DNA from: Spirulina sp.
GTDB lineage: Bacteria; Cyanobacteriota; Cyanobacteriia; Phormidesmidales; Phormidesmidaceae
Assembly: GCA_044070495.1 (NCBI GenBank)
Contig: JBIPSI010000002.1
Coordinates: 64,001 to 128,000 of the forward strand
Length of the DNA stretch: 64,000 nt
Direction: 5' to 3'
The notes below the pieces were generated by a model. That model searched no databases and was not told where the DNA came from. It worked only from the letters and a program-made list of their open reading frames with translations. The position numbers were made by a program, and so were the translations under genes. Positions 904 to 63,218 of this stretch are shown one piece after another (within the stretch, counting starts at the first letter, position 1; each line of letters begins with the position of its first letter).

Positions 904-922
904 GCCCCAGGACACCGATGGC

Positions 923-2512
923 CTAGGCGGTTTCCGCCATCCGATCCGGCAGTCCCTCCAGGAGGGGGGCTAGGTCTTGCTTGAGCTGGCCAGCCCGGAT
1001 AAATTCGGCATAGGTGTCGGCCTCAATGGCCAGCAGTTCTTCCCGCAGTTGTTCCGAGGCGTAGCGCTGGATTTCGGGGTGTTTATGCTCCAGATCGACG
1101 AGGTTTTCCTGGACTTCCTTCAGTTGTCCGGCCACCAAAGCCCGCTGATAGCCGACAAATTCCGGGTCAAATTCCTGATTATCCTGAATTTCATCGAGGC
1201 GTTGCAGCACTCGCGTCAGGGCCACCCGCTGGGCGCTCATCTGCTGATATTCCACCCGTAGGGGCTGGTCGCCTAGGAGGTTGAGGGCCTCTAGGAGCGG
1301 TTTAGTGGTCAAGCCCTGCACCAGCAAGGTAAACAGCATCACCCCAAATACCACGCCGATCACTTCCTGCCGTTCGCCCAACACCGCTGGCACACTCAGG
1401 GCCAGGGCCACCGACACCGATCCCCGCAGCCCGCCCCACCAGAGGACGGTTTGCCCCGCCAGCGGCAGATCCATCTCTGGCCCCGTGACGGCATTACTGA
1501 GGGCACCCAGGCCGTAGACGCTGATGGCACGGGCGATCACCATAATCACAATGGCGACAAAAATCTTGTCGAGGTTGGCCATCAGCCCCGCAAACTGCAC
1601 CTGGTCGCCAATCAGCAAAAAGACGATGGAATTGATGAAAAACGACACAAACTCCCAAAATTCCGATACCACCAGGCGGGTACGGGGGTTCATGCCGATG
1701 CGGGAGCCAAAATTGCCTAAAATCAGCCCCGTGGTGACCACAGCGATCACCCCGGATCCGCCCAATTCCTCCGCCACCAAGTAGGTGCCGTAGGCCGATA
1801 CTAGGGTAAGGGACTGCTCCACTAGGGGAATATCAAAGCGCTGGGTGAGGAAGGAAATACCAAAGCCAATCAGCCCACCAATGCTGATCCCCACCCCCAC
1901 AAACACCAGGAATCGGGCCACGGTTACCGCCGCATCCAACGGTTCTAGTCCCAGGGCCAAGCCCAGCAGCAGGTTGAAGGCTACCACCGCCACGCCGTCG
2001 TTAAATAGGCTCTCCCCCTCCATAATCGTGGTGAGCTTTTTATCGACGCCCAACTCCCGGAACAGCGCCACCACCGACACCGGATCCGTGGCCGATAGAC
2101 TAGCCCCCACCAGCAAAGCCGTCGCCAGGGATGCCCCGGCAAAGGTTTGCAACCCCCACACCAAACTGCCCACGCAGATCACCACGCCGAAGATGGCATA
2201 GAGCACCACGGGCACCGCATACTGCTTCAGCTTTTGCCAGTTCAGGTTCCAGGCGGCCTCAAACAGCAGCGGCGGCAAAAAGATAAAGAGAATCAACTGG
2301 GGCGACAGGTTAATCAGCCGCACATCCACCAGGGCCAGCCCCAGGCCCACCAGCAGCAACAGCAGGGTATAGGGGATATTTCGCAGCACGCTAAACATGC
2401 GCGACAGGGTGGCTACCCCCAGGGAAACCGACAGCACCAGGCAAAATTGGCGCAGATGGGCCTCAATACTGGGATCCTCCAGCATCGATTCAACGGCAAG
2501 TAAAAGACTCAT
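923..2512 (-). CDS. Na+/H+ antiporter, CPA1/NhaP family
   Basis: LPPLLFEAA, ATDPVSV, EGESLFNDG and GGLRG motifs; many TM helices. Confidence 0.93.
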   Translation of the reverse strand: MSLLLAVESMLEDPSIEAHLRQFCLVLSVSLGVATLSRMFSVLRNIPYTLLLLLVGLGLALVDVRLINLSPQLILFIFLPPLLFEAAWNLNWQKLKQYAVPVVLYAIFGVVICVGSLVWGLQTFAGASLATALLVGASLSATDPVSVVALFRELGVDKKLTTIMEGESLFNDGVAVVAFNLLLGLALGLEPLDAAVTVARFLVFVGVGISIGGLIGFGISFLTQRFDIPLVEQSLTLVSAYGTYLVAEELGGSGVIAVVTTGLILGNFGSRIGMNPRTRLVVSEFWEFVSFFINSIVFLLIGDQVQFAGLMANLDKIFVAIVIMVIARAISVYGLGALSNAVTGPEMDLPLAGQTVLWWGGLRGSVSVALALSVPAVLGERQEVIGVVFGVMLFTLLVQGLTTKPLLEALNLLGDQPLRVEYQQMSAQRVALTRVLQRLDEIQDNQEFDPEFVGYQRALVAGQLKEVQENLVDLEHKHPEIQRYASEQLREELLAIEADTYAEFIRAGQLKQDLAPLLEGLPDRMAETA

Positions 2513-2595
2513 AGGGTCAGCGTCCTGAGGTAAACAGCCAGGGTCACAGTTCTACCCACCAGCACCAAGGGCAGGCACAGGCAAGATAGACCACA

Positions 2596-2621
2596 CCTAG
2601 GGGATTCGGCAACCCCCTAGG
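2596..2621. terminator. Hairpin downstream of gor
   Basis: CCTAGGGGATT-CGGC-AACCCCCTAGG stem-loop. Confidence 0.45.
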
Positions 2622-2731
2622 ATGACGGGCGGCTACGGGCCTGCGGATTGAGGAGGTCTTTCGGGACAAACCTCAGGACGCTGGCCCAGATTTGTCCTTG
2701 GGGATTGACCCAGAGGATTGACCCAGGGCAT

Positions 2732-4084
2732 CTACCGCATGGTGACGAACTCTTCGGCGGAACTGGGGTGGATGGCGATGGTGGCATCGAAGTCGGCCTT
2801 GGTGGCTCCCATCTGCACGGCAATGGCCACGCCCTGGATGATTTCGGCGGCGTAGTCCCCTACCATGTGCGCCCCCAATACCTTATCGGTGGGCTGGTGA
2901 ACAATCAGCTTCATCAGGGTGCGGGCTTCCATGCCGGGGACGCTGTAGTACATGGGCCGGAAGCGGGAGCGGTAGATTTTGATGCTGTCCTCGCCGTACT
3001 TGGCCTTGGCCTGTTCCTCGGTCATCCCCACGGTGCCCATTTCGGGGGTGGTGAAGACGGCGGTGGGCACAATGGCGTGGCTCATCAGGCCCGGTTTGTT
3101 GCCAAATTCGGTATCGGCAAAGATGCGTCCTTCCTTGATGGCCACGGGGGTAAGGTTCACCCGGTCGGTGACATCGCCCACGGCGAAAATGTGGGGCACG
3201 GCGGTACGGTGGTGTTCGTCTACGGCGATGGCTCCGTGGTGGATTTCAACGCCTGTGTTCTCTAGGCCAAGACCCTGAACGTTGGGGCGGCGTCCGGTGG
3301 CGGCAAGGCTGACGGCATCGGCTAGGATGTGCTCCTGCTTTTCGGGGGTGGCGATGGTGACATCCACCCCGGCCTCGGTTTTGTGGATGGCGATCAGTTC
3401 GCAGTGGGTCATCAGGGTGATGCCCTGCTGGGTCATGGCGTTTTGAATTTCGGTCCGCAGTTCTTCGTCAAAGCCGCGCAGAATTTTGTCGCCCCGCACC
3501 ACCTGCACCACTTCGGTACCCAGGCCGTTGAGAATACAGGCAAACTCGCTGCCGATGTAGCCGCCGCCCAGGATCACCACCCGCTTGGGCTGCTGGGGCA
3601 GGTGAAAAATGTCATCGGAGGTGATGGTGTATTCAATGCCGGGAACATCGGGCTTGACGGGCTTGCCCCCCACGGCAATCAGAATTTTTTCGGCGGTGAC
3701 TTTCTGATTGCCCACCTCCAAGGTGTGCTCATCCACAAAGCGGGCATAGTGCGGAAAGAGTTGCACCGAAGACTTGTCCAGCATGGTGCCGTAGATGCCG
3801 TTGAGGCGGGTGACTTCGGTATCCAGCGCCTTAACCAGGGTGGGCCAGTCAAAATGGCGATCCCCCACCGTCCAGCCATAGCCAGCGGCGGCCTCAAACT
3901 GGTCGGGGAAATGGGAGGCATAGACCATCAGCTTTTTGGGCACACAGCCCCGGTTCACACAGGTTCCCCCCAAGCGTCCGGCCTCGGCAAGGCCCACCTT
4001 GGCCCCATACTCGGCGGCTCGACGGGCGGCGGCAATGCCCCCGGATCCGCCCCCGATCACAAATAAATCAAAATCATAGGCCAT
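2732..4084 (-). CDS. gor: Glutathione-disulfide reductase
   Basis: GGGSGG FAD site, GGTCVNRGCVPKK redox disulfide, HPSSAEE C-terminal motif; start placed at MAYDFDL. Confidence 0.95.
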   Translation of the reverse strand: MAYDFDLFVIGGGSGGIAAARRAAEYGAKVGLAEAGRLGGTCVNRGCVPKKLMVYASHFPDQFEAAAGYGWTVGDRHFDWPTLVKALDTEVTRLNGIYGTMLDKSSVQLFPHYARFVDEHTLEVGNQKVTAEKILIAVGGKPVKPDVPGIEYTITSDDIFHLPQQPKRVVILGGGYIGSEFACILNGLGTEVVQVVRGDKILRGFDEELRTEIQNAMTQQGITLMTHCELIAIHKTEAGVDVTIATPEKQEHILADAVSLAATGRRPNVQGLGLENTGVEIHHGAIAVDEHHRTAVPHIFAVGDVTDRVNLTPVAIKEGRIFADTEFGNKPGLMSHAIVPTAVFTTPEMGTVGMTEEQAKAKYGEDSIKIYRSRFRPMYYSVPGMEARTLMKLIVHQPTDKVLGAHMVGDYAAEIIQGVAIAVQMGATKADFDATIAIHPSSAEEFVTMR

Positions 4085-4250
4085 GGTTCTATCCCCCTGG
4101 TTGGTCACACTATTTCCTAGTGTATCGAGGTTGAGCAAACCCTATGGGTTGAATGAATCACAAATTTGATGGAGTTGGGAATCGGGGTTGCCTCGTTGAA
4201 ATGGGGTAGGAATGCGGTCTGAAGGTGAATGTGGTTGAGGCCGTCGAGCC

Positions 4251-5417
4251 TTAATTCGGCACAATTTCTGTAACCACTTGGCCACCGTTATTCTGGCCGC
4301 CATCCACCACAAAGGTGCCCTCCTGCAAGCGGCCAATCCCCCGACTACCGTTGAGGTTGAGGGCCGGATTGACCTGTTGATAATTCACCCGTCCCTCGGC
4401 CACCAGAATTTGGTCAGGAATCGTCCAGGTGAGTTGATCGGTGGTGAGGCGGGATTGGGGTTGCTGCCGCACCGCCACCACGTCTTGGCTGACGCGAATC
4501 ACCTCGTTGGCCAAATCCATCGCCCCCTGGCGACCCGTTACCACTAGGCCATCGGTAGGACGAGTTAGGGTCAGCGGTTGATTTACATTAATTTGCTCCT
4601 CGGCCACCCGCCACTCCAGCACCTCACTGGTGAGGGTGAGGGGTAACGCGAGGAACTGCATGGTGACCGCCCCCTGAAGGGTAGCCACGTCTTCGGCTAG
4701 ATTCACTTGCCCCCGCTGCCCCTGCACCACCTCAGTAATGGTGGCGTCTTTAAATTGTTCAATGCGCAAGGGCTGAGGGCTGTCGATCATCTCTTGATCC
4801 CAGGACCACAGCAATTGTTGGGCTTGCAGCTTCAGCCAGGGTTCAGTTTTGGGGTCTTCCACCACGGTGTTGGCTACCACATTGCCCAACAGTTCCATGC
4901 GGTTTTCGCGATTGAAGACCCGGAATTCATCCGCCGTGGCCCGCAGTTGGGGATGGGTTCCGGTCACGGCTTGGCGCATTACCAGCACATCTTCCTGGGG
5001 CCGCCATTCCATTTCCTTGCCCCGCAGCACCGCACCGTTTTTAACCCCCGTGGCCACAATATTGCCGCGCAAAATAATGGTGTTGCCGTTGTCGCGCATT
5101 TCCCCGGTGTCGGCAGTGACATTGTAGATCACCTCGCCATCTTGAAAAAGCTCGCCATCGGGGCGGGTAAACATGGCCACGGATCGATCCGGGCTGTAGG
5201 TGGCTTCCTCCGCCTTCACCCGCCACAGTAGAACGCCGTTTTCGTCGGGCTGTTCTAGGGTGACATTCCGCAGGGTAAACTCCGCCTCCACCGATGACTC
5301 CGGTGTATCGGTAGACGGAGGGGGAGCCAAGGGGCCAAGCCCTAGCCAATACATCCCTAACCCAAGAACGGCAGCTACCCCAACCCCCACTGTAATCTGC
5401 TGTTTTTTCCCCATCAT
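4251..5417 (-). CDS. lptC: LPS export protein LptC (long cyanobacterial form)
   Basis: N-terminal TM anchor, repeated beta-jellyroll-like sequence, position after metG and the NYN gene. Confidence 0.8.
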   Translation of the reverse strand: MMGKKQQITVGVGVAAVLGLGMYWLGLGPLAPPPSTDTPESSVEAEFTLRNVTLEQPDENGVLLWRVKAEEATYSPDRSVAMFTRPDGELFQDGEVIYNVTADTGEMRDNGNTIILRGNIVATGVKNGAVLRGKEMEWRPQEDVLVMRQAVTGTHPQLRATADEFRVFNRENRMELLGNVVANTVVEDPKTEPWLKLQAQQLLWSWDQEMIDSPQPLRIEQFKDATITEVVQGQRGQVNLAEDVATLQGAVTMQFLALPLTLTSEVLEWRVAEEQINVNQPLTLTRPTDGLVVTGRQGAMDLANEVIRVSQDVVAVRQQPQSRLTTDQLTWTIPDQILVAEGRVNYQQVNPALNLNGSRGIGRLQEGTFVVDGGQNNGGQVVTEIVPN

Positions 5418-5462
5418 CGTGCCGCTAGGGATAGCCCCGCTCCGAATGCGCCGCTATCTATC

Positions 5463-6101
5463 CTAGCCCCTCGCCTCCGGCTCCGCCGCCAGATCCTCCG
5501 TTCCGCCCAGGCTAGGCAGCGGACGATAGGTGTAGTTGTGCTGGGGGGCACGGGGGTTTTTCTTGATGTCGTCCTTCACCAGTTCTAGGTCAATGTAGCG
5601 GTCGGCTACGTTGATTAGACTGTCGCTGGTCATGGAACGTAGACTCACCACCTCGATGCGGGCTCCCCGATAGCTGGCGGCATCGGCAGCGTAGGCCAAA
5701 TCCCCATCGCCGCTGACCAGCACCGCCGTGTCGTAGTAGTTCACTAGAGCCACCAGATCCACGGCAATTTCCACATCCAAATTGGCCTTTTTAGATCCAT
5801 CGGGCAACTGCACTAAGTCCTTGGCAATCACTCGATAGCCGTTGCGCCGCATCCACAGCAAAAAGCCCTGCTGCTTTTCGTTACTGCGATCCACGCCCGT
5901 ATAGAAGAACGACCGAAACAGGCGTGATCCAGCGGTTAGCTTACAGAGCAACTTGGTGTAGTCAATCTCAATCCCCAATTGCAGGGCGGCATAGAACAGG
6001 TTAGAACCATCGATGAAGATAGCCACCCGTCCCCGGTTGTCGAGCACTTGCTCAGGGGTAAAAATGGCGTCTTCGCTGATTAAAGAATGAGCGTCTAGCA
6101 T
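5463..6101 (-). CDS. NYN domain protein (LabA/DUF88 family)
   Basis: IFIDGSNL, KANLDVEIAVD and LVSGDGDL motifs. Confidence 0.9.
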   Translation of the reverse strand: MLDAHSLISEDAIFTPEQVLDNRGRVAIFIDGSNLFYAALQLGIEIDYTKLLCKLTAGSRLFRSFFYTGVDRSNEKQQGFLLWMRRNGYRVIAKDLVQLPDGSKKANLDVEIAVDLVALVNYYDTAVLVSGDGDLAYAADAASYRGARIEVVSLRSMTSDSLINVADRYIDLELVKDDIKKNPRAPQHNYTYRPLPSLGGTEDLAAEPEARG

Positions 6102-6193
6102 GGGATTTTTATCCGGTTGTATTAAATCAGAGGGGTTTTAAAGGGGCTTTTATGGGGCAGTAATAATGTATTCTCCGTGGGTTAAGGCGGGGG

Positions 6194-7786
6194 CTAATCC
6201 ACGACTTCAGAAATCTCAATCCGCTGAAAAATAGGCTTGGCCTCCCCTAGGGATTGCCCTGGGGGCAGCATTCCCCAGGTAGACTGCTCAGCAAAGGACA
6301 GATCATCAGCAATGGAACGCTGGTTAAAATCCACCCCATAGCCAAGCTGCCGATAAATTTCGTTGCTCAGCCCCGGCACCACGGGCGACAACAGGTAGGC
6401 GGCAAGGCGTACCGATTCGAGGACAGCGTATAAAACGGCTTCGGTTTCCGCCTGTTTCCCTTGCTTAAAGAGACTCCAGGGGGCTTCGTCGTCAAGGAAC
6501 TTATTGCTGGCCTGCACCAGTCCCAGAACAGCGGTACAAGCTTGGCTAAATTTCAACTGCTGATAGGCCTCGGCAACGGTGTTTCCCAAGGCTTTACCCA
6601 TGCCCTTTAACCGATGGTCATCCGTTAAAGACATAGGATCAACAGAGGGAACCTTTTCTCCACAATAACGCGCCGCCATCTTTATCGTGCGATTTAACAG
6701 ATTTCCTAAATCATTGGCCAAATCAGCGTTGAGAACGTTGATGAACCGGGTTTCGTTAAAATCCCCGTCTTTGCCAAATTCAATTTCTCGCAGAAAGTAG
6801 TAGCGGACGGCGTCAGGCCCATATTTATCAACCAATTCCACAGGATCGAGGGTATTTCCTAGGCTTTTGCCCATTTTCAAGCCATCTTTGGTTAAAAAGC
6901 CATGGCCAACCACCTGCCCAGGCACAGGCAACCCCGCCGACATCAGCATGGCGGGCCAATACACGGCATGAAACCGCAGAATATCTTTGCCAATCAGGTG
7001 CACATTAATGGGCCACCACTGGCTCGTTGCGGCCTCTAAATTGGGGGTTTCGTTGGGGTCTTGCAGGGCGGTCACATAGCCTAAAAGGGCGTCAAACCAG
7101 ACGTAGAGGGTGTGGTGGGGATCCGTGGGCACCGGAAAGCCCCAGTCCAAATTGACGCGAGAGATAGAAAAGTCTTGCAAGCCCCGTGTGACAAAGCTCA
7201 AAACCTCATTGCGGCGGGTTTCGGGCTGAATGAAATCGGGCCGTTCGGCATAGAGTTGCTCTAGTTTTTCCTGGTAGTTAGACAGCCGAAAGAAATAATT
7301 CTGCTCATCCCGCCATTCCACGGTTTTGTTGGGATGGAGGGGGCAGCGGTGGTCATCCAACAAATCCCGCTCTTCTTTAAATTCTTCGCAGGAGACGCAG
7401 TACCAGCCCTGCTGCTGCCCCTGGTAAATATCTCCTTTTTCCCACACCCGCTGAAAAAACTCCCGCACAATTACCTCATGGCGGGGGGATGTGGTGCGAA
7501 TAAATCGATCCCATTGAATATTTAACTTCTGCCACAGGCTTTCAAACCCCGCCACCACCTGATCGCAATGATCCTGGGGCGAAATTCCCCGTTCTTCGGC
7601 GGTGCGGAGAATTTTTTGGCCGTGCTCATCGGTACCGGTAATCATCAACACGGGCTGCCCCGTCAGGCGATGGAACCGGGCAACCACGTCCGCCGCAATG
7701 GTGGTGTAGGCGCTGCCAATGTGGGGCAGGTCGTTGACGTAGTAGAGCGGGGTGGTGATGGCGAAGGGGGCAGCGTTGAAGGTCAT
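6194..7786 (-). CDS. metG: Methionine--tRNA ligase
   Basis: YYVNDLPHIGSAY (HIGH), YVWFDAL, KMGKS; start placed at MTFN. Confidence 0.96.
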   Translation of the reverse strand: MTFNAAPFAITTPLYYVNDLPHIGSAYTTIAADVVARFHRLTGQPVLMITGTDEHGQKILRTAEERGISPQDHCDQVVAGFESLWQKLNIQWDRFIRTTSPRHEVIVREFFQRVWEKGDIYQGQQQGWYCVSCEEFKEERDLLDDHRCPLHPNKTVEWRDEQNYFFRLSNYQEKLEQLYAERPDFIQPETRRNEVLSFVTRGLQDFSISRVNLDWGFPVPTDPHHTLYVWFDALLGYVTALQDPNETPNLEAATSQWWPINVHLIGKDILRFHAVYWPAMLMSAGLPVPGQVVGHGFLTKDGLKMGKSLGNTLDPVELVDKYGPDAVRYYFLREIEFGKDGDFNETRFINVLNADLANDLGNLLNRTIKMAARYCGEKVPSVDPMSLTDDHRLKGMGKALGNTVAEAYQQLKFSQACTAVLGLVQASNKFLDDEAPWSLFKQGKQAETEAVLYAVLESVRLAAYLLSPVVPGLSNEIYRQLGYGVDFNQRSIADDLSFAEQSTWGMLPPGQSLGEAKPIFQRIEISEVVD

Positions 7787-11300: not shown

Positions 11301-11307
11301 CGATGCC

Positions 11308-41460: not shown

Positions 41461-44211
41461 CTAGGACTTGGAGGATGGCAGGGGATATTTAGCCATTTCG
41501 CTGGGGGTGCTACTGCTCAGAACCATCTCCTTGGTAAAGTAGCCCAGGCCTTGGATCAACCGCGCCACACAGCCGGTCCATCCAGTTTGGTGGCTGGCCC
41601 CAATGCCAGAACCATCATCGCCATTGAAGTATTCGTAGAACAGAATCAAGTCCTGCCAGTGGGGATCGGTTTGGAATTTTTCGCACGGGCCATAGACCGG
41701 ACGCCGACCGTTTTCATCCTTGAGGAAAATCCCCACAATGCGGTCACTGAGGCACTGGGCTACATCGAAGAGATCCTTTTGTTCCCCGGATCCCGTGGGA
41801 TATTCCACAGTGAAATCGTCGCCGTAGTAGCTGTAGAGTTGCAGCAAGGCCCGCACCAGCAACAGGTTCATGGGCATCCACACCGGGCCACGCCAGTTGG
41901 AGTTGCCGCCAAACATACCGGAGGTGGAATCGCCGGGGACATAGCCCACCTTGTATTCCTGGCCGCCATGGTAGAAGACGTAGGGGTGGTCGAGGTGGTA
42001 GCGGGAGAGGGAACGAATGCCGTGGGGGCTGAGGAATTCGCTTTCGTCCAGCATCCGCGACAGCACCCGTTTGAGCTTGTCCTCGTTCAGCACCGAGAGC
42101 ATGTAGCGATCCCGCACGCCCAGTTGGGTGGTGAGGTGGATGTTGTGGGTGAGTTCCGGGTGTTTGCCAAGGAATTCAGTAATTTCCTTGGCCAGCCTAG
42201 GCAATTTCTGAAGCACGTCGCGATGGAACACCGCCACCGCCATCACCGACAGTAGCCCCACCAGCGACCGCACCTTTAGTCGGGTGGAGGTGCCATCGGG
42301 CAGACGCAGCACGTCGTAGAAGAAGCCGTCCTCCTCATCCCACAGTTCATCGTTGTGTTCGCCGATGCGATCCATGGCCCCGGCAATCCACATGGTGTGC
42401 TGGAAGAATTTGAGGGCAAAGTCTTCGTAGAGGGAATCGTGCAGGGCCAGTTCGATGGCAATTTGGAACATCTGCTGGCTAAAGAACACCATCCAGGCGG
42501 TGCCATCGGCCTGTTCTAGGTGGCCCCCGGTGGGTAGGGGCGAACTGCGGTCAAACACGCCGATGTTATCCAGCCCTAGGAAGCCCCCCTGAAACAGGTT
42601 GTTGCCGCCCTCGTCCTTGCGGTTGACCCACCAGGTGAAGTTAATCAGCAGTTTCGAGAAGGCATATTTAAGGAACTCAATGTCCCCTTGGCCCTCGTTA
42701 GAGAGGCGATCACGGGTGTAGATTTCCCAGGTGGCCCAGGCATGGACGGGCGGGTTGACATCGCCAAAGTTCCACTCATAGGCAGGAATTTGGCCGTTGG
42801 GGTGAAGGTAATCTTCCCGTAGCATCAGCATCAATTGATCCTTGGCGAACCCTGGATCGATGGTGCTGATGGGGATAACGTGGAAGGCCAAATCCCAGGC
42901 GGCGTACCAGGGGTATTCCCACTTGTCGGGCATGGAAACGATGTCATCGTTTTTCATGTGGAACCAGTCGCTGTTCCGCACCCGCTTTTTGTCCGCCTGA
43001 GAACTCCAGGGGTTGACGTTGCGTTCCCGCAGCCAGGGATCCAAGTCGTAGTAGAAGTACTGCTTCGTCCACATCATCCCGGCTAGGGCTTGGCGCATCA
43101 CCATGGCCCGGTCGGCATCGGCCTGCACTGCGGGCGGTGTTACCGTCATGTAAAACTCGTCCGCCTCTTGCAGTCGCGTGGCAAAGGTTTGATCAAAATA
43201 ATCGCTAAAGGGATCGCCCACTTGGTCAGGAGCCGCCTTGGTGAGCCGCAGTTTGATCACCGTGGTTTCTCCGGCCCCAACGGTGATCTGGTAGTGGGGG
43301 GCCACCTTGGTGCCGACACAATCAGGATTTACCGCATCCTGTTGGCCGTGGACGACGTAGTTGTTGAAAGCGTCCTTGACGTAGGGGTTTTCGTTGGGCT
43401 GGCCAAAAATGCGCTCGGTGTTGGTTTCGTTGTCGGTGAACAGCAGCGTCCCCCCGGCTTGGCAATAGAAATAGTAGTCGTGGATGAAGGGCGTGAGCAC
43501 CGGATTATTCACATGGGCCTGCACCACGCCGCAGTTCAATCCAGATTGTTGGGTCATCTGCGGTTTTTCCCCGGTGTCCTCCCAAGACCAGGTATTGCGG
43601 AACCACAGAGTGGGCAGCACATGGAGCGGAGCCGCCTCTGGCCCCCGGTTGGCGACGGTGATTTGGATCATCACGTCTTCGGCGTCGGCCTTGGCATACT
43701 CCACAAACACGTCGAAGTAACGGTTTTCGTCAAAGATGCCCGTATCCAGCAGCTCATACTCCGGCTGGTAGCGATCCCGGCTGGCGTTGGTTTTCACCAG
43801 GTCTTCGTAGGGATATTCCCCCTGGGGATACTTGTACAGATACTTCATGTAGGAGTGGGTGGGGGTACTGTCTAGGTAGAAGTAGTACTCTTTCACGTCC
43901 TCGCCGTGGTTGCCCTCGCTGTTGGTGAGGCCAAAGAGGCGTTCTTTGAGGATGGGATCCTGGCCATTCCAGAGGGCCAGGGCAAAACAGAGCAGGCTAT
44001 GGTCGTCACAGATACCACCCAGGCCGTCTTCCCCCCAGCGGTAGGCACGGGATCGGGATTGGTCGTGGGGAAAGTAGTTCCAGGCATTGCCATCGGTGCT
44101 GTAATCTTCGCGCACGGTGCCCCACTGGCGTTCGCTGAGGTAAGGCCCCCATTTGTACCAGTTGGTTTCACCGTCGTAGAGCTGTTTTAGACGTAGGGAT
44201 TCCGGGGTCAT
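41461..44211 (-). CDS. Glycoside hydrolase, GH63/MGH1-like glucosidase
   Basis: WGPYLSERQWGTVREDYS, PDKWEYPWYAAWDL, GASHQTGWT. Confidence 0.88.
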   Translation of the reverse strand: MTPESLRLKQLYDGETNWYKWGPYLSERQWGTVREDYSTDGNAWNYFPHDQSRSRAYRWGEDGLGGICDDHSLLCFALALWNGQDPILKERLFGLTNSEGNHGEDVKEYYFYLDSTPTHSYMKYLYKYPQGEYPYEDLVKTNASRDRYQPEYELLDTGIFDENRYFDVFVEYAKADAEDVMIQITVANRGPEAAPLHVLPTLWFRNTWSWEDTGEKPQMTQQSGLNCGVVQAHVNNPVLTPFIHDYYFYCQAGGTLLFTDNETNTERIFGQPNENPYVKDAFNNYVVHGQQDAVNPDCVGTKVAPHYQITVGAGETTVIKLRLTKAAPDQVGDPFSDYFDQTFATRLQEADEFYMTVTPPAVQADADRAMVMRQALAGMMWTKQYFYYDLDPWLRERNVNPWSSQADKKRVRNSDWFHMKNDDIVSMPDKWEYPWYAAWDLAFHVIPISTIDPGFAKDQLMLMLREDYLHPNGQIPAYEWNFGDVNPPVHAWATWEIYTRDRLSNEGQGDIEFLKYAFSKLLINFTWWVNRKDEGGNNLFQGGFLGLDNIGVFDRSSPLPTGGHLEQADGTAWMVFFSQQMFQIAIELALHDSLYEDFALKFFQHTMWIAGAMDRIGEHNDELWDEEDGFFYDVLRLPDGTSTRLKVRSLVGLLSVMAVAVFHRDVLQKLPRLAKEITEFLGKHPELTHNIHLTTQLGVRDRYMLSVLNEDKLKRVLSRMLDESEFLSPHGIRSLSRYHLDHPYVFYHGGQEYKVGYVPGDSTSGMFGGNSNWRGPVWMPMNLLLVRALLQLYSYYGDDFTVEYPTGSGEQKDLFDVAQCLSDRIVGIFLKDENGRRPVYGPCEKFQTDPHWQDLILFYEYFNGDDGSGIGASHQTGWTGCVARLIQGLGYFTKEMVLSSSTPSEMAKYPLPSSKS

Positions 44212-54053: not shown

Positions 54054-54126
<73 letters not shown>

Positions 54127-56323: not shown

Positions 56324-56336
56324 GGAGAACGGTGGC

Positions 56337-57536
56337 TTAGCCCTGGGGATTGATGGTGGCGATCACTTCCCCCGTGAGCTGAGTGTCATAGCCGCCTAGG
56401 TGCTCTAACTGGGACAAGACCCGGCGGTGACCGAGGGTGGCGAGCAACTGTTGCACCGGGGGTTCCTCTATGTAGGGCTTGAGGGTAACCAAATCGTAGT
56501 GGGAGGAGCGCAGAGGAATAAAGCCAAGCTGAAAGGTTTCCGCAACGGAGGCGGCACTCACGCCCACATCCGCCTGTCCGGTCAGAATAGCCTCCGCCAC
56601 CGCCTGGTGGGAATAGGCCACAGGCCCAGTCCCCAGCCAGGAGAGACCGACCTCGGCCATGGCCTGATCCAGAACGTGGCGACTCCCTGCCCCCGGCTCG
56701 CGATTGATCAGCACCACATCCTCTCGCCCCAGATCGGCCACGCCTTGAATGCCCTTGGGGTTGCCAGGGGCCACCAGCAAGCCCTCCTGCCAAACGCCTA
56801 AGTTGACAATCACGGCGGCTTGGTCGATGGATTGATCGGCCAAGGCTTGACGCACAAAGGGCAGGTTAAAGCTTTGAGTGTGGGGGCAAAACAGGTGCAT
56901 CCCGGCGATATGAACTTCGCCAAGCAGCAGCCGTTGGAGGGCATCTTGGCTGTTGGCAAAGGTGAGGTGAACCCGCAGGCCAGGATGCCAACGCTCCGCC
57001 GCCTTCGCCCACAGGGACAGGGCCGGGGCACAGCCCGCCACCACCACCGTATTGAGCAGGTTGGCGGCATCGTCTAGCAGGGTCACCGCCACGGGGTCTT
57101 GGCCCTTGGCGGCAGCGTCCCCTTGTCCCTGGGCAGGGCTGAGGGCTGTGTCCCCAGATGGGTCTCCACTGGCATAGACCTCTCCATCCGCCGGGATTAA
57201 TTCCATCCGAAAGGCATCGGCCCCCACGAGGGGATGGGCCACCCAGCGCCCCCCCACCTGGGCCAAACTCACCCGCAATGGACTTCCCTGGGGGGTTCCT
57301 TGGGCGGGCATGGCCATGATTTGGGTGGCTTCCTCCGCCAGCCAAAACAAATCCTCGACCCGACAGCCCAGGCCCTTGGCCAACCGCAGGGCCACGGTGA
57401 TGGATAGGGCCGTCTGTCCCGATTCCACCGCCCCAATGGTTTGCCGACTAACCCCAGCCATGGCCGCCAAGTCCTGTTGACTTAGCCCTAGCCGCAACCG
57501 GGTTTGCTTTAGCCCATTATTCAATCCAACCTTCAC
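56337..57536 (-). CDS. XRE-HTH regulator with molybdate-binding-like (PBP) domain
   Basis: LSQQDLAAMAGVSRQTIGAVE HTH; NREPGAGSR; GYDT C-terminus. Confidence 0.85.
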   Translation of the reverse strand: MKVGLNNGLKQTRLRLGLSQQDLAAMAGVSRQTIGAVESGQTALSITVALRLAKGLGCRVEDLFWLAEEATQIMAMPAQGTPQGSPLRVSLAQVGGRWVAHPLVGADAFRMELIPADGEVYASGDPSGDTALSPAQGQGDAAAKGQDPVAVTLLDDAANLLNTVVVAGCAPALSLWAKAAERWHPGLRVHLTFANSQDALQRLLLGEVHIAGMHLFCPHTQSFNLPFVRQALADQSIDQAAVIVNLGVWQEGLLVAPGNPKGIQGVADLGREDVVLINREPGAGSRHVLDQAMAEVGLSWLGTGPVAYSHQAVAEAILTGQADVGVSAASVAETFQLGFIPLRSSHYDLVTLKPYIEEPPVQQLLATLGHRRVLSQLEHLGGYDTQLTGEVIATINPQG

Positions 57537-57683
57537 GCTCCGTTCCTCGCCATCCTATGCGCTAGATCTTCCCCGTGGCACCCCCGTCCTTGGTTTTGAG
57601 GATCCCCAGGATTCGGGCGAGTCCTGCCTAGGCCCGATCATCCCACACCACCCTAGGTCTGGGAGGCCTAGATTCTGCGATGC

Positions 57684-59798
57684 CTAGGGTGCGGTCTCCT
57701 CTGCCCCTTGCCAAATCCGCACTAGGGGTTGGTTGCCGCCAATGGTGACGAGGTGGCCATTGGGCTGGACGGTGAACCGCCAAATATCCGTAGAAAACCC
57801 GGTAATTTGCCGTATGGGGGCCTGCTGATGCAAATCCCACACCAAAATCACCTTGTCGGCATCGGCGCTCCACACCTGAGGCCCATCCACGCGCAGGGTA
57901 TTTACGTAGCTCTGGTGTCCCTCTAGCACCGCCTGGGAGGTCTGGGTGGTGAGATTCCACAGCCGTACCGTTTTGTCGGCGGAGGCGGTGATTAGGGTTT
58001 GGTTATCGTCGCTGATGGCGATGCGGTTCACAAAGCTGGTGTGCCCTTCTAGGGTAATCGGGGTGGGGACAAGGGCCGGATTGGCCGTATCGAGGAGGGC
58101 GAGATCCCACAGTTGCAGGCTGGCCCCGCCGCTGACTAGCCAGCGGTTATCTCGGCTAAAGAGGAGGTCGTTGATGGTGCCGTCGGCCTGGAAGGTGTAG
58201 CTGGGGCCAGATTGGGCCATGGCCGCGAGGTTGAGGCTGCCGTCTGCGGTGACGAGGGGCCATAGTTTAATGGTGCCGTCGCCATCGGCACTGGCCAACC
58301 AGCGGTTGTTGTTGCTTACTTCCACCGCCGTGGTGGGGATGGCATGGGCGTTGTCAATCTGGCCGAGGGGGTTGCCATCGGGCAAGGCCCAGAACCGCAG
58401 GGTGCGGTCATCCCCGGTGCTAATCAGGACGGACTGATCGGTGGTGGCCGCCAAGGATTTCACAACGTTGGTGTGTTGATCCAGGGTTTTGATCAGCGTT
58501 CCTGCATCGAGATCCCAAAGGCGGATGGTTTCGTCGGCGCTGGCTGTAATCAGGGTTTTACCATCCCGCAGCAGCAGCAGATCATAAATATCGCCCCGAT
58601 GCCCCTCCATCGCCAAAATCGGGGTAACTTCCACCTGCTCTAGGGTGGGCTGGGTGACGGCAGCGGGGTTGCCCGCTGATCCCAGATCCCGACTGAGGGC
58701 GTACCAGGTCAGGGGAACCGCTAGGGCGAGGCCCGTGATTCCCGCCAACAGCCAGGGCCGACCCGCCAACCAGGGCGGCAAAAAGCTGCGGGTGGGGTCG
58801 GGTCGGGTGGGAGATCCGTGGGGATCAAGGGTGGTTTGGGGCCAAGGGGTTGGAGGCTGAGGGGGACGGGGGGGACGGGTGATCTGGCCAGCGCGAATTT
58901 GCCCTAGGCGTTCGAGGATGGCGGCAGTGGTGGGCGGACGCTGGGCGGCGGCGGGGGCAATCAGTTCATCTACAAAGTCGGCCAGGTCGGGGGAAATTTG
59001 GGGGGCATGCTTGCGCCACTGGAAGGCATTGGTGCGGGGATCGTAGATAGTCGGATCGTTGGGCAGCTTGGCCGTGAGCAGATAAATTAACGTGCGGCCC
59101 ATGGCGTAAAAGTCGGACTGGGGCACCGCTTGGCCCTGCTCTTGCTCCGGGGGAGTGTAGCCCGCCGAACTCACGGTGGTGATATTGCTATCTCCAAGCT
59201 GGGCCATGTAGGTTTGGGTCATCTCGCGGGCGGCCCCAAAATCTACCAGCACCAACTGCCCCGACGACCGCAGCATAATATTTTCGGGCTTGATGTCGCG
59301 GTGAAAATAGTGATGCTGATGTACCAGATGCAGCACATCCGTCAGTTGGGTGAGCCACAGCATGGCCTGCTTTTCGCTGATGGGATGGTTGCCCTGCTGC
59401 ACCATCCACTGCTTCAGGTTGGGGCCATCGATCTGCTCCATCACCAGGCAGTGGCAGGGTTCAGAACTGTCTTTCGGAAAGTACTGGAAATAACCATCGG
59501 GTTCCACATGGGGCACCCCCGGATGGTTGAGCTGGCCGAGCACCTGGGCCTCGCGCCGAAACAGCTCTAGCACCTTATCGTTGTGGTTGTAGCTCGCCTT
59601 CAGCACCTTGAGGATTTTGGGAATATTCCGCTCGTAGGCTTCATAGACCTGGCCAAAGCCGCTCTGGTTGCTAATCAACCGCATCACCCGGTAGCGCCCC
59701 TGCAACAGCAGATCAGAACCACAGGCCTGACAGACCTGGCTGGCACTGTTTTCTGGGTGATTGGGCTGGTGACAATGCGGGTTTATACAAAGGCTCAT
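57684..59798 (-). CDS. Ser/Thr protein kinase with WD40 repeats
   Basis: CINPHC zinc-ribbon start, HRDIKPEN, DFG, TM helix, GH...WD repeats. Confidence 0.92.
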   Translation of the reverse strand: MSLCINPHCHQPNHPENSASQVCQACGSDLLLQGRYRVMRLISNQSGFGQVYEAYERNIPKILKVLKASYNHNDKVLELFRREAQVLGQLNHPGVPHVEPDGYFQYFPKDSSEPCHCLVMEQIDGPNLKQWMVQQGNHPISEKQAMLWLTQLTDVLHLVHQHHYFHRDIKPENIMLRSSGQLVLVDFGAAREMTQTYMAQLGDSNITTVSSAGYTPPEQEQGQAVPQSDFYAMGRTLIYLLTAKLPNDPTIYDPRTNAFQWRKHAPQISPDLADFVDELIAPAAAQRPPTTAAILERLGQIRAGQITRPPRPPQPPTPWPQTTLDPHGSPTRPDPTRSFLPPWLAGRPWLLAGITGLALAVPLTWYALSRDLGSAGNPAAVTQPTLEQVEVTPILAMEGHRGDIYDLLLLRDGKTLITASADETIRLWDLDAGTLIKTLDQHTNVVKSLAATTDQSVLISTGDDRTLRFWALPDGNPLGQIDNAHAIPTTAVEVSNNNRWLASADGDGTIKLWPLVTADGSLNLAAMAQSGPSYTFQADGTINDLLFSRDNRWLVSGGASLQLWDLALLDTANPALVPTPITLEGHTSFVNRIAISDDNQTLITASADKTVRLWNLTTQTSQAVLEGHQSYVNTLRVDGPQVWSADADKVILVWDLHQQAPIRQITGFSTDIWRFTVQPNGHLVTIGGNQPLVRIWQGAEETAP

Positions 59799-60133
59799 AA
59801 CCAACGGCAGAATGCATCCCCAAGTGTGATCCAGTGTTCCACGGAACGGCACGGATGTACCTATCGACCGGGTTTTCTTTTGAATTGCCCCCGCCCCGCC
59901 CCGCGAAGCCCAGGACTCGAAGTCCAAGGCTCAGAGCCGAAATCCTCTCAAGAGGATTCGGGGGCAAGTCTTGTTGCCTGCTGAAGCAGACTTTTGCGGT
60001 GAGCCAGGGTGTTCACGCCCTAGTTGTGGATTCCATGACTTCCTTTTTAGAAGGCATCCGCCTTCAGTTGGCCTACGGGGAGAGGGGCGTTAGAAAGGCT
60101 CAAAGTCTCTCCATGGAGAGGATTATCCTGGGC

Positions 60134-60796
60134 CTAGGGCTTATTTTTGAGGTAAGCAAAGACGGATTTATCGCCAATGTCGGGCACAAGGGGTTGGGTG
60201 AGTTTGCGGATTACAAACACGCCAAACAGCAGTGCCCAGAGGATCAAAAGCCCCTGTTCTAGCCTCCCAGGGAACAGGCTAAACAGGTGACCCAAAAGCA
60301 GCACGGGCACCAGGGGCGTGAGCAGTTTGGCTTCTAGACGGTTAAAACAAAAGGCTTCTTTGACGTAGATTCCAGTCAGGGCGGCGAAGGTGAAGCCCAT
60401 GCCCCAGAGGGTTTGGGGATAGGTCACTACGGTTTCTGCCAGGGGGCCATCGATGCCGTGGGCAATGGCGAGGGTGGCCAGTCCGCCGATCAGCCAAAAC
60501 CCTTGCAGCAGGCGGTGTAGGGGGATGAGGTAGATATGAATGGTGGCAAGACTCAAGCCTAGGCCCAACCAAAGGAGGGTGTAGCACAGGCTGATGGCTT
60601 GAACGAAACTAGGATCGTTGGCAAAGCCTAGGCCTAGCCCCACGCCCAGGATGAGTCCTAGGGCCGCTGCCGCCAGACCACTCCGGTAGAGCTTGACCCC
60701 TAGACGATCTTGGTCGGTGATGGTGTAGTCGCCAAACTGGCCCTGGTAAACCCCTGGGGATTCGGGCCTAGCTGTCTCGGAAGCCGCGTTTGCCAT
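60134..60796 (-). CDS. DUF2301 membrane protein
   Basis: YQGQFG, IHIYL.PLH, KEAFCF, DIGDKSVF. Confidence 0.85.
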   Translation of the reverse strand: MANAASETARPESPGVYQGQFGDYTITDQDRLGVKLYRSGLAAAALGLILGVGLGLGFANDPSFVQAISLCYTLLWLGLGLSLATIHIYLIPLHRLLQGFWLIGGLATLAIAHGIDGPLAETVVTYPQTLWGMGFTFAALTGIYVKEAFCFNRLEAKLLTPLVPVLLLGHLFSLFPGRLEQGLLILWALLFGVFVIRKLTQPLVPDIGDKSVFAYLKNKP

Positions 60797-60932
60797 GGGA
60801 ACCTCTCGATAAAAGCAGGACGATGGGGGCGGGCTGGGTTTGCGCCTCATTCAACCATCCTTAGCCTAACCGCAGCCCAACCGCACCGGATCCTAGACTA
60901 GGGCAGCGTTGGACGAGGGGTGGCCCCATCCC

Positions 60933-63218
60933 CTAACGGCTGAGGGAGAATTGGGTGGGCAGCGAGACCGTAAAACAAGTGCTGTGGGCATCGCTGGCGA
61001 CGGCCACTTCGCCCCCCAAATGCCGACAAAGCTTGCGTACCAAGGCCAGACCAAGACCTGTGCCGCCCTGCTTCCAGGGATCGGCACTGGGCACTCGGTA
61101 GAACTTGTCAAAAATGCGGGTCAGTTCCGATGGGGGGATGGTAACCCCGGTGTTGGTCAGCACGAACTGCACCTGGCTTTGGTGGGAGTGGGGGACAGGT
61201 TCCACATGGATGCTGATGTGCTCACCGGGGGGGGTGTATTTGCAGGCGTTGTTGAGCAATTCCGCTAGAATTCGCTCCAGGCTGGCGAGATCGGTGTGCA
61301 CCACGGGCAAGGTAGGGGCCGTGCTCAGCGTCAGGGTTTGATCTCGGCTTTTGGCACGGGTGATGAAGCTATCCATCAAGCCTGGTAGCCAGGTTCTAAG
61401 CACGATGGGTTCGGTTTGGACGGGGTGGTTGCCCACATCGAGGCGCTGCAAATCGAGCAGGTCGTTAATGAGGCTAATCTCCCGCTCGCATTCCTCTTGC
61501 AGGATGTGGTAGTAGCGGGCGATGCGGCTTTGTTCGGCCTTAGGCTTGTGTAGCTCATCGGCTAGGCTACATTCCTGGGTGAGGGTGACCCCCAACAGTT
61601 GCAGCGCCACCCGCATACTCGTGACAGGGGTGCGCAGTTCGTGGGAGACGGTGCTGAGGAAGTCGTCCTTGAGGGTGTTGAGCCGTTCTAGTTCCGCCAC
61701 CTGCGACTGGGCCGCTTCGTAGAGTCGGGCCTGACGAATGGCAATGGCGCACTGGTTGGCCACCTGCTGCACCAGCCGGATCTCAATGTCGCTAAAGCCG
61801 TAGTCGCGGCCATTGATCAGCCACAGATCCCCTAGCACGCCCCGGTCGTCCAAAACCGGGCAGGCCAGCATGGCCACATAGCCCCGGTCGGGGTTGGGTT
61901 CCATGGAGCAAAACTGGAAGTATTGGCCGTTGAGCAACTGGTCGTAAACCTCTGGGAAGGCTTCCATCTGGGCCACGCGCCCCTGGTAGGCGGGGATGGA
62001 ACTGTTGTAGCTGTTGTACTCGTAGTAAATCGTAGAGGTACCCTGCTCCAAATCATAAAGAGCGGTGTTTGACCCCTTGGCCCCTAGGGCTTCGGTCAGT
62101 TCCTCCACCGCCGTCAGCATAATTTGGTTGACATCTAGGCTGTCGCGCACCCGGTCGGTGATGCGTTTGAGGGTGGCTTCAAAATCTAGGGCGGTTTGCA
62201 GTTGTTCGGTGCGCTGGGCGACCTGCTGCTCTAGAGCGGTGTTGAGTCGCTGCACCTGGTTGTATAAACGGGCTTGCTTAATGGCGCTGCCCACCTGGGT
62301 AGACACCTCCCGCAGGGTTTCAATTTCCCAGCTTTGCCAGGGGCGAGAACCGCTGCGGTGAAGGGCGCATACCAACCCATAGAGGGCGTCTCCCTGCACG
62401 ATAGGCACCACCAGCCCCGCCTGCACCTCCATCTGGGCCAGCCGCTCGCGATAGGCCGACGGCAAGCGCGCGGTGTGGATATCGTCGATCACCTGAATTT
62501 CCCCCTGACAAGACCGCACCAGATCCTGGGCAATCAGGTTTAGCGCCGCTAGGGAATCTCCCAACGTAAAGGGCATGGGCGTTGCGGCAGACTCAGCCAC
62601 GACGCCTCGGTAGTCAGGATCGAAGCTGTAGAACACAACCCAGTCCACCTTCAGAAATCGCCGCACCTCGTTGACGGTGGTTTGCAGCAATTCCTCTGGG
62701 TTCATCGACTGCAATAGGTGTTGGGCAATCGCCCCCAACAGCCGCTCCCGCTCCGACTGTCGCCGCAGGGTTTGTTCCACCTGCTGCTGGGCGGTAATGT
62801 CTTGCAGCGTCACCATCAGCAGCGGGGCTTCCGCTGTCGCCGCTACTACGGGGGCAATGCTCACAATCAGAGCCCGTGGAGGCCCATCCCCACTGGGCAA
62901 CAACACCTGCGTGGATTGCCGCTGCCCCGTTGCCAATGTTTGCCGTTCTGCGGCCAAAAAGACCTCCGCCACCGCCGGAGGCAAAATATCTAGCTCCGAC
63001 TTCCCTACCAAGTCCTCCGTGGTGTAGCCTAGCAATTCTCGGTAGGCCCGATTGAGAAACAGCCAACTGTGGAGATGATTTTTAATCCCCACCGGGGCCG
63101 CCACCACATTGAATAATTGATCAAAGCCATCCTGCAACAGTCGCCCCTGGCAGTCGCGACAGTGATCGAGATCTTGGGCAGGCAGGGAAGATGCCACAAA
63201 GGGGGTTGGGTTAGTCAT
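60933..63218 (-). CDS. PAS-GAF-GAF sensor histidine kinase
   Basis: FLSTVSHELRTP, ELLNNACKY, GTGLGL. Confidence 0.92.
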   Translation of the reverse strand: MTNPTPFVASSLPAQDLDHCRDCQGRLLQDGFDQLFNVVAAPVGIKNHLHSWLFLNRAYRELLGYTTEDLVGKSELDILPPAVAEVFLAAERQTLATGQRQSTQVLLPSGDGPPRALIVSIAPVVAATAEAPLLMVTLQDITAQQQVEQTLRRQSERERLLGAIAQHLLQSMNPEELLQTTVNEVRRFLKVDWVVFYSFDPDYRGVVAESAATPMPFTLGDSLAALNLIAQDLVRSCQGEIQVIDDIHTARLPSAYRERLAQMEVQAGLVVPIVQGDALYGLVCALHRSGSRPWQSWEIETLREVSTQVGSAIKQARLYNQVQRLNTALEQQVAQRTEQLQTALDFEATLKRITDRVRDSLDVNQIMLTAVEELTEALGAKGSNTALYDLEQGTSTIYYEYNSYNSSIPAYQGRVAQMEAFPEVYDQLLNGQYFQFCSMEPNPDRGYVAMLACPVLDDRGVLGDLWLINGRDYGFSDIEIRLVQQVANQCAIAIRQARLYEAAQSQVAELERLNTLKDDFLSTVSHELRTPVTSMRVALQLLGVTLTQECSLADELHKPKAEQSRIARYYHILQEECEREISLINDLLDLQRLDVGNHPVQTEPIVLRTWLPGLMDSFITRAKSRDQTLTLSTAPTLPVVHTDLASLERILAELLNNACKYTPPGEHISIHVEPVPHSHQSQVQFVLTNTGVTIPPSELTRIFDKFYRVPSADPWKQGGTGLGLALVRKLCRHLGGEVAVASDAHSTCFTVSLPTQFSLSR

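Follow-up and report, generated by a model that had tools for sequence, protein, structure and literature searches.

Highly iterated palindromes (HIPs) of cyanobacteria have been described at high density, roughly 500–2500 copies per Mb: HIP1 (GCGATCGC) reaches 300–2700 copies per Mb with an observed/expected ratio (O/E) of 55–228, and GGGATCCC of hot-spring Synechococcus reaches 1160–1345 per Mb with an O/E of 39–50, according to the sections of Elhai 2015 (PMC4390886) drawn on here. The same sections list GGGATCCC, GGCGCC, GCsGC, rCCGGy and CAGGCCTG as alternate HIPs and describe an alternate HIP as the top oligomer of its genome, accompanied by a matching methyltransferase and found only where HIP1 is low; they also report, for picocyanobacteria without HIP1, a modest excess of the palindromic hexamer TGATCA with no known function (PMC4390886). 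The conservation of HIP1 and GGGATCCC sites exceeds that of control palindromes, as stated in the part of Xu 2018 (PMC5861425) that we cite. Here, we analyse the hexamer CCTAGG in a stretch of 64,000 nucleotides (G000:C2:64001-128000, hereafter the window) and in its source genome, G000, for which a first-pass annotation had proposed that an alternative HIP based on CTAG may have replaced HIP1. That reading is partly supported: the excess of CCTAGG is real and HIP1 is missing, while the idea of a replacement HIP is unsupported. Neither CTAG nor CCTAGG occurs in the text of Elhai 2015 (PMC4390886), and our literature search found no report of a CTAG-based HIP, or of CTAG or CCTAGG over-representation, in cyanobacteria.

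CCTAGG is over-represented in the window and genome-wide

The G000 assembly comprises 5.31 Mb in 74 contigs, with 56.7% G+C and a completeness of 97%. The window carries 56 CCTAGG sites, against a mean of 17.64 (standard deviation 3.80, maximum 27) in 100 dinucleotide-preserving shuffles, none of which reached 56. The first-pass annotation had come close with about 55 sites against roughly 19 expected; all 14 coordinates that it listed are present in the computed site list, and it was right that HIP1 is missing, with 0 copies of GCGATCGC in the window and 104 in the 5.3-Mb genome. Its statements that many sites are CCCTAGGG or GCCTAGGC and that they frequently overlap TAG stops were too strong: the two octamers account for 7 and 8 of the 56 sites, respectively (15 together), and six sites lie on a stop codon in our own open reading frame (ORF) calls. 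By the same calls, 32 sites have the frame xxC-CTA-GGx, 4 the frame CCT-AGG and 14 are intergenic; the corresponding genome-wide shares are 50, 6.5 and 34%, with 10% on stops. The window ranks second among 87 half-overlapping 64-kb windows of the genome, in which the mean CCTAGG count is 36.3 (standard deviation 7.5), and is an extreme sample of the genome for this word.

Across G000, CCTAGG occurs 2989 times (563 per Mb, with 303 per Mb expected), and its O/E under Markov models of orders 0–4 is 1.86, 2.02, 1.17, 1.34 and 0.93. The octamer CCCTAGGG has 629 copies (118 per Mb) and a zero-order O/E of 4.86. The ratios at maximal order (0.93 and 1.07) were judged uninformative because the sub-words themselves carry the signal. 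CTAG, with 21,263 sites, has an O/E of 1.06 and hence is not depleted.

The excess acts at the DNA level

Genes were called from ORFs and scored by codon log-odds, which gave 4284 genes over 81% of G000, and the codon-aware null model shuffled synonymous codons within each gene in 25 replicates. The excess persists under this model: the coding sequences contain 1692 CCTAGG sites against 757 ± 26 (O/E 2.24, z = 37), 395 copies of CCCTAGGG against 83.5 (O/E 4.7) and 14,475 CTAG sites against 9929 (O/E 1.46). It also does not depend on the reading frame, since both stop-free frames are enriched in high-confidence gene parts, defined as the last 60% of 2241 long high-scoring ORFs. There, the frame CCT-AGG, which uses two rare codons, was found 61 times against 8.3 expected (7.3-fold) and the frame xxC-CTA-GGx 680 times against 359 (1.9-fold), and CTAG was in excess 1.45-fold and 1.78-fold in its two frames. 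Part of the coding excess is ordinary codon context, with CTA followed by G (1.43) standing alongside other preferences for NNA before G (CCA 1.52, ACA 1.39 and TCA 1.33). The 4284 called genes end in TAG (2284), TAA (1276) or TGA (724); the arrangement CC-TAG-G is found at 13.4% of 2283 TAG stops, and the same flanks at 4.2% of TAA and 1.9% of TGA stops.

Intergenic DNA contains 1005 CCTAGG sites in 1.02 Mb, with an O/E of 3.92, 2.82, 1.72 and 1.46 at orders 0–3. CCTAGG, CCCTAGGG and CTAG are the top palindromic hexamer, octamer and tetramer of this fraction, and the 185 intergenic copies of CCCTAGGG exceed expectation 11-fold and 5.3-fold. Since the excess is found in both stop-free frames, goes beyond synonymous shuffles and extends to intergenic DNA, it acts at the DNA level. 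Density is 1.05–1.29 per kb in tandem, convergent and divergent spacers and flat along spacer length, with a slight rise to 1.6–1.7 per kb in the first 30 nt past stops; a terminator or promoter element is ruled out by this even density over spacer classes and positions. Around 1005 intergenic, 1685 coding and 299 stop sites, the only flanking preferences are C at −1 and G at +1. A repeat family is likewise ruled out, as there are no conserved flanks and the largest extended word has 7–15 copies.

The excess is specific to a HIP1-poor clade

Using arginyl-tRNA synthetase (ArgRS) as a marker, we compared 53 genomes of the genus. ArgRS is 95–97% identical to that of G000 in six of them (G059, G050, G047, G027, G035 and G005) and at most 88% identical in the other 46, except for a 162-residue fragment in G038 at 91%. 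The HIP1-poor genomes are exactly G000 and these six relatives, with 5–148 HIP1 copies per Mb against 366–1298 (median 1152) in the remaining 46. CCTAGG density, in turn, is 454–635 per Mb (median 525) in the seven clade genomes vs 118–478 (median 222) in the others, so that the clade holds seven of the top eight places among the 53. The eighth belongs to G010, a HIP1-bearing genome outside the clade that combines 659 HIP1 copies with 478 CCTAGG sites per Mb. Inside the clade, G050 retains 148 HIP1 copies per Mb. G010 and G050 are possible intermediates for dating the loss of HIP1 and the gain of CCTAGG. Because all seven HIP1-poor genomes belong to one clade, they count as a single evolutionary event in support of a link with HIP1 loss.

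The closest named public records are strains of Nodosilinea (85–87%) and a strain deposited as Phormidium sp. FACHB-1136 (97%). Leptolyngbya sp. BL0902 (Nodosilineales), which may or may not belong to the present clade, has been reported to have unenriched HIP1, with no replacement octamer named (PMC13756078); a literature search for a methylome of this strain returned nothing relevant.

Word statistics were obtained from sampled DNA of two of the six other clade genomes (G005, 247 kb; G035, 400 kb) and of two HIP1-bearing genomes (G012, 400 kb; G004, 337 kb), while the samples of G010 and G001 (23 and 32 kb, in short contigs) were too small to weigh. The first-order O/E of CCTAGG over whole samples is 2.02 in G000, 1.79 in G005 and 2.06 in G035, vs 0.65 in G012 and 0.58 in G004; in intergenic DNA, the values are 2.8–3.1, 3.3 and 3.0, respectively, vs 1.05 and 0.69. 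The first-pass annotation would have been undone by an equal level in HIP1-bearing relatives; most of them have much lower levels, as in these ratios (0.58–0.65 vs 1.8–2.1 in the clade), although the density in G010 reaches that of the clade. Aligned orthologues give the same picture, with 49 CCTAGG sites in G000 vs 15 in G012 and 28 vs 9 in G004, against 71 vs 70 in the comparison with G005. The CCTAGG excess is thus specific to one clade and of similar size in three of its genomes.

TAG makes up 0.54, 0.52 and 0.51 of stops in G000, G005 and G035, and 0.53 and 0.45 in G012 and G004; CTA makes up 0.139, 0.125 and 0.116 of leucine codons in the three clade genomes, and 0.112 and 0.134 in the two HIP1-bearing ones. 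Because usage of TAG and CTA is alike in clade and HIP1-bearing genomes, it cannot explain the difference in CCTAGG. A codon or stop artefact is ruled out by this similarity together with the synonymous shuffles and the excess in both frames. In each of the five genomes examined, TAG was the commonest stop (45–54% of those called from ORFs); this is an unusual preference for bacteria, and it appears to extend over the whole genus.

The gain lies in the pentamer CCTAG, and sites turn over quickly

Words were ranked by the change in first-order O/E between G000 plus G005 and G012 plus G004. The most-gained words are CTAG (first of 136 tetramers, log2 gain +0.67), CCTAG (first of 512 pentamers, +1.27) and CCTAGG (first of 2080 hexamers, +1.63), and in intergenic DNA CTAG (+0.53) and CCTAG (+1.12) again lead the tetramers and pentamers. 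Since CCTAGC, CCTAGA and ACCTAG were gained almost to the level of CCTAGG, and TCTAGA and GCTAGC were not gained in intergenic DNA, the unit gained is the pentamer CCTAG/CTAGG. The palindrome adds little to this. In intergenic DNA, the synergy ratio N(CCTAGG) × N(CTAG)/N(CCTAG)^2 is 1.10, with P(C given _CTAG) = 0.40, and by our own estimate a ratio of ~1.4 would follow if the hexamer alone had been boosted about three-fold. A synergy of 1.10 implies that the 3.9-fold intergenic excess corresponds approximately to the CTAG excess (1.6-fold at first order, 1.44-fold at zero order) multiplied by two independent flank preferences.

Turnover was measured on alignments of G000 and G005, at ~84% identity. 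In coding DNA, the conservation of CCTAGG is 0.253 (n = 87), below the 0.428 (n = 1093) of the other four-G/C palindromic hexamers; the non-coding values are 0.541 (n = 37) for CCTAGG and 0.533 (n = 90) for control palindromes. Of 833 hexamers, those containing CTAG rank among the least conserved. Where aligned sites differ, the most frequent variant is CCCAGG/CCTGGG (18 of 82 non-identical observations), which in the main frame is a synonymous exchange of CTA and CTG. Sites come and go fast, chiefly via CTG/CTA and CCCAGG/CCTAGG transitions in both directions.

CCTAGG compared with HIPs and other known systems

Like HIP1, CCTAGG is a short GC-rich palindrome dispersed over coding and non-coding DNA, with unconserved flanks and frame-independent enrichment; it is enriched in both stop-free frames (7.3-fold and 1.9-fold) and in intergenic DNA (2.8- to 3.9-fold). 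Alternate HIPs occur where HIP1 is low, and CCTAGG is likewise dense in the HIP1-poor clade, but also in the HIP1-bearing G010. In other respects CCTAGG differs from HIPs. The density of CCCTAGGG is 118 per Mb, and the 563 per Mb of CCTAGG is that of a hexamer for which 303 are expected; the O/E values of 1.86 and 4.86 are far below those of HIP1. Neither word is the top oligomer of its genome: by zero-order O/E, CCTAGG ranks fifth of 64 palindromic hexamers and 151st of all 2080 hexamers, CCCTAGGG ranks third of 256 palindromic octamers and 57th of 32,896 octamers, and the leading octamer is the triplet repeat GGCGGCGG (O/E 7.0). Site conservation between G000 and G005 is at or below that of control palindromes of equal G+C, and at an intergenic synergy of 1.10 the palindrome does not behave as a unit. 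CCTAGG thus departs from HIPs in four of seven properties and is not a highly iterated palindrome, and under Elhai's classification G000 is a genome with 'no high-frequency 8-mer'. The claim that a CTAG-based HIP replaced HIP1 is therefore not supported, the sites being too few, too weakly enriched and not preferentially conserved, and lacking palindromic synergy. For comparison, genome G015, from another family of the same class, has 4099 copies of GGGATCCC in 3.0 Mb.

The picocyanobacterial TGATCA (PMC4390886, in the sections drawn on above) is the best fit in kind, being a modest excess of a palindromic hexamer, although the core here is CTAG rather than GATC, the gain lies in the pentamer CCTAG, and it maps to one clade of an otherwise HIP1-rich genus. 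A further parallel is the signature of Dcm and Vsr in Escherichia coli, in which CCWGG is raised and CTAG depleted; there too, CCWGG and CTAGG are one transition apart and their balance depends on the lineage. The depletion of CTAG in E. coli has been attributed to very-short-patch (VSP) repair. For E. coli K-12, the portion of Davidsen et al. 2007 that we cite gives 0 copies of GCCTAGGC against 151 expected. In the present clade, by contrast, CTAGG is raised, Vsr was not found in 31 genomes and no CCWGG methyltransferase was found in G000. CCTAGG is also the restriction site of AvrII/BlnI, but restriction would deplete it, as seen for restricted sites in G000 (O/E 0.003–0.13), whereas CCTAGG is enriched. 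The HIP1-bearing G012 and G004 show a mild depletion (O/E about 0.6).

Methyltransferases, repair and the loss of HIP1

The first-pass annotation had also suggested that the system was driven by a methylase or by repair, and the searches made here lend this no support. Vsr (PF03852) was found in none of the 31 genus genomes searched, G000 included. The methyltransferase search in G000 covered five Pfam families; within these families, no methyltransferase tracks the clade and no candidate for CTAG or CCTAGG was found, with the limit that specificity cannot be read from sequence. A matching enzyme such as accompanies alternate HIPs was thus not found for CCTAGG within these families in the 97%-complete assembly. 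The sole C5 methyltransferase (PF00145) of G000 adjoins a nuclease of the Eco29kI family (PF09517, E = 5.6e-70), so that no C5 methyltransferase of the CCWGG type was found in the genome. The tandem pair (nuclease of 214 aa, methyltransferase of 387 aa) lies on a small contig (G000:C51:3316-6702), beside a weak GIY-YIG-like ORF and among neighbours that look low in G+C. This family is known to cut CCGCGG, a word with 7 sites in the G000 genome. The PF01555 and D12-class methyltransferases, one of each, are single-copy orthologues found genus-wide, in 50 and 51 of 53 genomes, and two large ORFs of the Eco57I/N6_Mtase type have no match in clade genome G035 (99% complete).

The PF01555 methyltransferase (G000:C27:5967-6935) occurs as two divergent types inside the HIP1-poor clade: identity to the G000 protein is 93% in G059, 79% in G027 and 78% in G035, and 59–61% in G005, G047 and G050, with most HIP1-bearing genomes (66–75%) lying above the latter three. 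The D12 methyltransferase of G005 is 48% identical to that of G000.

The core of HIP1, CGATCG, has nearly disappeared from the clade, with 208 sites in G000 (O/E 0.13), 2 in the 247 kb of G005 and 0 in the 400 kb of G035; half of the 208 sites in G000 sit in the remaining 104 copies of GCGATCGC. HIP1 was lost in the clade via this near-complete removal of CGATCG, which is better established than the cause of the CCTAGG excess and has in part been published already. As CGATCG stands at the level of a restriction-avoided word, HIP1 may have been lost through the purge of a PvuI-type site. In G000, TGATCA, a two-transition derivative of CGATCG, is raised (1847 sites, O/E 1.97), and GGCGATGG/CCATCGCC are among the top octamers (1469 copies, O/E 5.7); both could be relics of decayed HIP1.

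Avoidance extends to many other palindromes. An O/E below 0.2 was found for 26 of the 64 palindromic hexamers of G000, for instance CCGCGG (7 sites), CGGCCG (8), GGCGCC (8) and GTCGAC (11), and GGWCC is nearly absent (first-order O/E 0.03). The avoidances specific to the clade include GTCGAC, CTGCAG, CAGCTG, CGGCCG and GGWCC. Despite the many avoided palindromes, the five-family search found one classical restriction-modification pair in G000. An origin of CCTAGG as a by-product of destroying avoided palindromes was rejected, as no strongly avoided hexamer lies within one substitution of it; the word with the second-largest gain, GATCC/GGATC, does have an avoided word, GGWCC, one transition away.

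Origin of the CCTAGG excess

The CCTAGG excess is probably a neutral, context-dependent bias of mutation or repair, that is, a genome signature. At the DNA level, the clade genomes sampled favour the pentamer CCTAG, or CTAGG on the opposite strand, the TA step tending to take C on its left and G on its right among G/C-rich neighbours, and the CCTAGG hexamer is the place where the preferences of both strands coincide. This pentamer preference adds to genus-wide habits that make CTAG common (Leu-CTA at 11–14% of leucine codons, TAG at 45–54% of stops), and as a neutral bias it would involve neither selection on individual sites nor recognition of the palindrome by a methyltransferase. The bias arose in the lineage from which CGATCG was purged, and HIP1 along with it. 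We favour a neutral word bias because the unit is a pentamer, palindromic synergy is lacking, turnover is fast and there is no positional preference. Whatever its origin, CCTAGG is no stand-in for HIP1 in number, excess or conservation.

Several points weigh against a neutral bias or limit its basis. The comparison of G000 with G005 gives no sign of present-day hypermutability at CC[Y]AG, where C/T differences are not elevated (0.085 vs 0.092 overall, rank 134 of 241), and deamination of the Dcm type predicts an equal rise of CTTGG, whereas the intergenic values are 1.04 for CTTGG and 2.01 for CTAGG. A top-ranked pentamer rise of 2- to 3.6-fold would also result from a weak sequence-specific drive, low site conservation is compatible with selection on density, and a mutational mechanism for the bias is proposed rather than demonstrated. 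The deep sampling outside the clade consists of G012 and G004 (337–400 kb each), both below the genus median for CCTAGG. Genes were called from ORFs and codon scores instead of a true annotation, and part of the ~19% called intergenic probably consists of unrecognised genes.

Among the rival explanations, an incipient or weak alternative HIP would combine an orphan CCTAGG or CTAG methyltransferase with methylation-linked mismatch repair, as Elhai proposed for HIP1, after the loss of HIP1. The frame-independent excess that extends to non-coding DNA and the top rank of CCTAGG among words gained in genomes with low HIP1 are both consistent with this, and CTTAGG/CCTAAG, the product of a C-to-T change at position 2, is under-represented (O/E 0.52–0.59), as repair restoring CCTAGG would give. 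We nevertheless consider it unlikely, given that CCCTAGGG, at an O/E of 4.9 and 118 per Mb, lies 10- to 40-fold under published HIPs in count and O/E, that CCTAGG sites show no excess conservation, and that the synergy is only 1.10. The enzymes point the same way: Vsr was found in none of the 31 genomes searched, the C5 methyltransferase is paired with a nuclease of the Eco29kI family, the PF01555 and D12 enzymes are genus-wide, and the Eco57I-like ORFs are unmatched in G035; in addition, G010 combines abundant HIP1 (659 per Mb) with abundant CCTAGG (478 per Mb). It is similarly doubtful that the rise of CCTAG and CCTAGG is the footprint of a sequence-specific drive in one Nodosilinea-type clade, through methylation-linked or mismatch-specific repair without a Vsr domain; that such a drive set in at about the time of the CGATCG/HIP1 purge and represents an early or weak stage of HIP building is, to the same degree, a speculative suggestion. 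A Dcm-like methylation of CCWGG without VSP repair in the ancestor of the clade, turning CCCAGG into CCTAGG by deamination of 5-methylcytosine, appears quite unlikely. The gained CTAGG is one transition from CCAGG, no Vsr was found in the 31 genus genomes searched, and the first-order O/E of CCWGG is lower in the clade (1.33–1.37 vs 1.64–1.80). Alignments to HIP1-bearing relatives, moreover, show a net flow from CCTGG to CCTAG (56 vs 29 in reverse, and 53 vs 8) and from CCTGG to CTTGG (93 vs 23, and 83 vs 39), with balanced outer positions. However, these coding flows are expected from any pressure towards CTAG because CTG to CTA is the sole synonymous one-step route, and there is also a net flow from CCTGG to CCTCG, which deamination leaves unexplained. 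In intergenic DNA, CTTGG (1.04) is not raised along with CTAGG (2.01) and CCAGG (1.09) is undepleted; CC[Y]AG is not hypermutable at present, and a CCWGG-type C5 methyltransferase was not found in G000.

It is also rather improbable that CCTAGG is an ordinary by-product of Leu-CTA usage, TAG stops, codon context and avoidance of other GC-rich palindromes, with no force specific to CTAG. Half of the sites are xxC-CTA-GGx and 10% lie on stops, CTA before G (1.43) is one of many preferences for NNA before G, the fourth-order O/E is 0.93, and avoidance of 26 of the 64 palindromic hexamers (O/E <0.2) inflates other GC-rich words relative to a zero-order model. Yet the excess survives synonymous shuffles, peaks in the rare-codon frame and is stronger still in intergenic DNA; it is absent from relatives that use CTA and TAG to a similar extent, the strongly avoided hexamers all differ from CCTAGG by more than one substitution, and little can be read from a maximal-order O/E close to 1. 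Weak selection on the density of CTAG or CCTAGG, with single sites free to turn over, is in our judgement very unlikely. Possible functions would be a site for binding or bending by a nucleoid protein, a two-strand backup stop, or a recombination or uptake signal, and we know of no candidate protein. Density is even in all spacer classes, with slightly higher values (1.6–1.7 per kb) within 30 nt past stops, and the O/E is nearly equal in three clade genomes that are ~84% identical (2.02, 1.79 and 2.06; intergenic 2.8–3.3). A stable O/E is, however, equally expected from a shared mutational equilibrium, conservation does not exceed that of controls and positional preference is lacking.

Sites in the window and other frequent words

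The long ORFs of the window are ordinary housekeeping genes, including methionyl-, arginyl- and threonyl-tRNA synthetases, FtsH, primase and sensor kinases. Representative CCTAGG sites are listed in Table 1. Two of the sites assigned to the CCT-AGG frame, 44373 and 44451, lie upstream of 44283, the start of a 940-aa ORF, and may be non-coding. The three-site cluster is not a repeat unit because its three sequences are unrelated.

Table 1. Coordinates of CCTAGG sites and site classes within the window
Feature	Coordinates	Strand	Remarks
All 56 CCTAGG sites of the window	922..62088		Dispersed; flank preference limited to C at −1, G at +1
Stop-overlapping site, GCCTAGGC on TAG	922..927		Other five start at 11307, 13153, 31747, 57683 and 60133
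Intergenic site pair, 20 bp apart	2596..2621		Examples of the 14 intergenic sites
Main class xxC-CTA-GGx (Leu-Gly), CCCTAGGG within the methionyl-tRNA synthetase ORF	6246..6251		32 of 56 sites are of this class
Rare-codon frame CCT-AGG (Pro-Arg)	42196..42201		Class of four: 11434, 42196, 44373 and 44451
Three-site cluster 57627, 57652, 57683	57627..57688		Two intergenic, one on a stop

The commonest intergenic 8- and 9-mers of G000 are words with G or C runs, such as CCCTCTCC (413 copies), GGGGGATC (403), AAGGGGGG (361), CCCTAGCCC (167) and GATTTAGG (268). The G- and C-run words suggest one or more families of short dispersed repeats.

Implications for HIP biology

The origin and upkeep of HIP sequences have been in question for thirty years, and a genus with 46 HIP1-rich species and a seven-member HIP1-poor clade is a natural experiment on them. 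In this experiment, HIP1 was not replaced by another iterated palindrome, and the largest positive word change is a modest gain of CCTAG/CCTAGG at the DNA level. Should the gain be purely a mutational signature, the finding would be ordinary, and a genome without HIP1 would need nothing in its place. If it were true that the gain is driven by repair or methylation, the clade would offer a weak but tractable example of motif drive that can be compared with HIP1-rich sisters.

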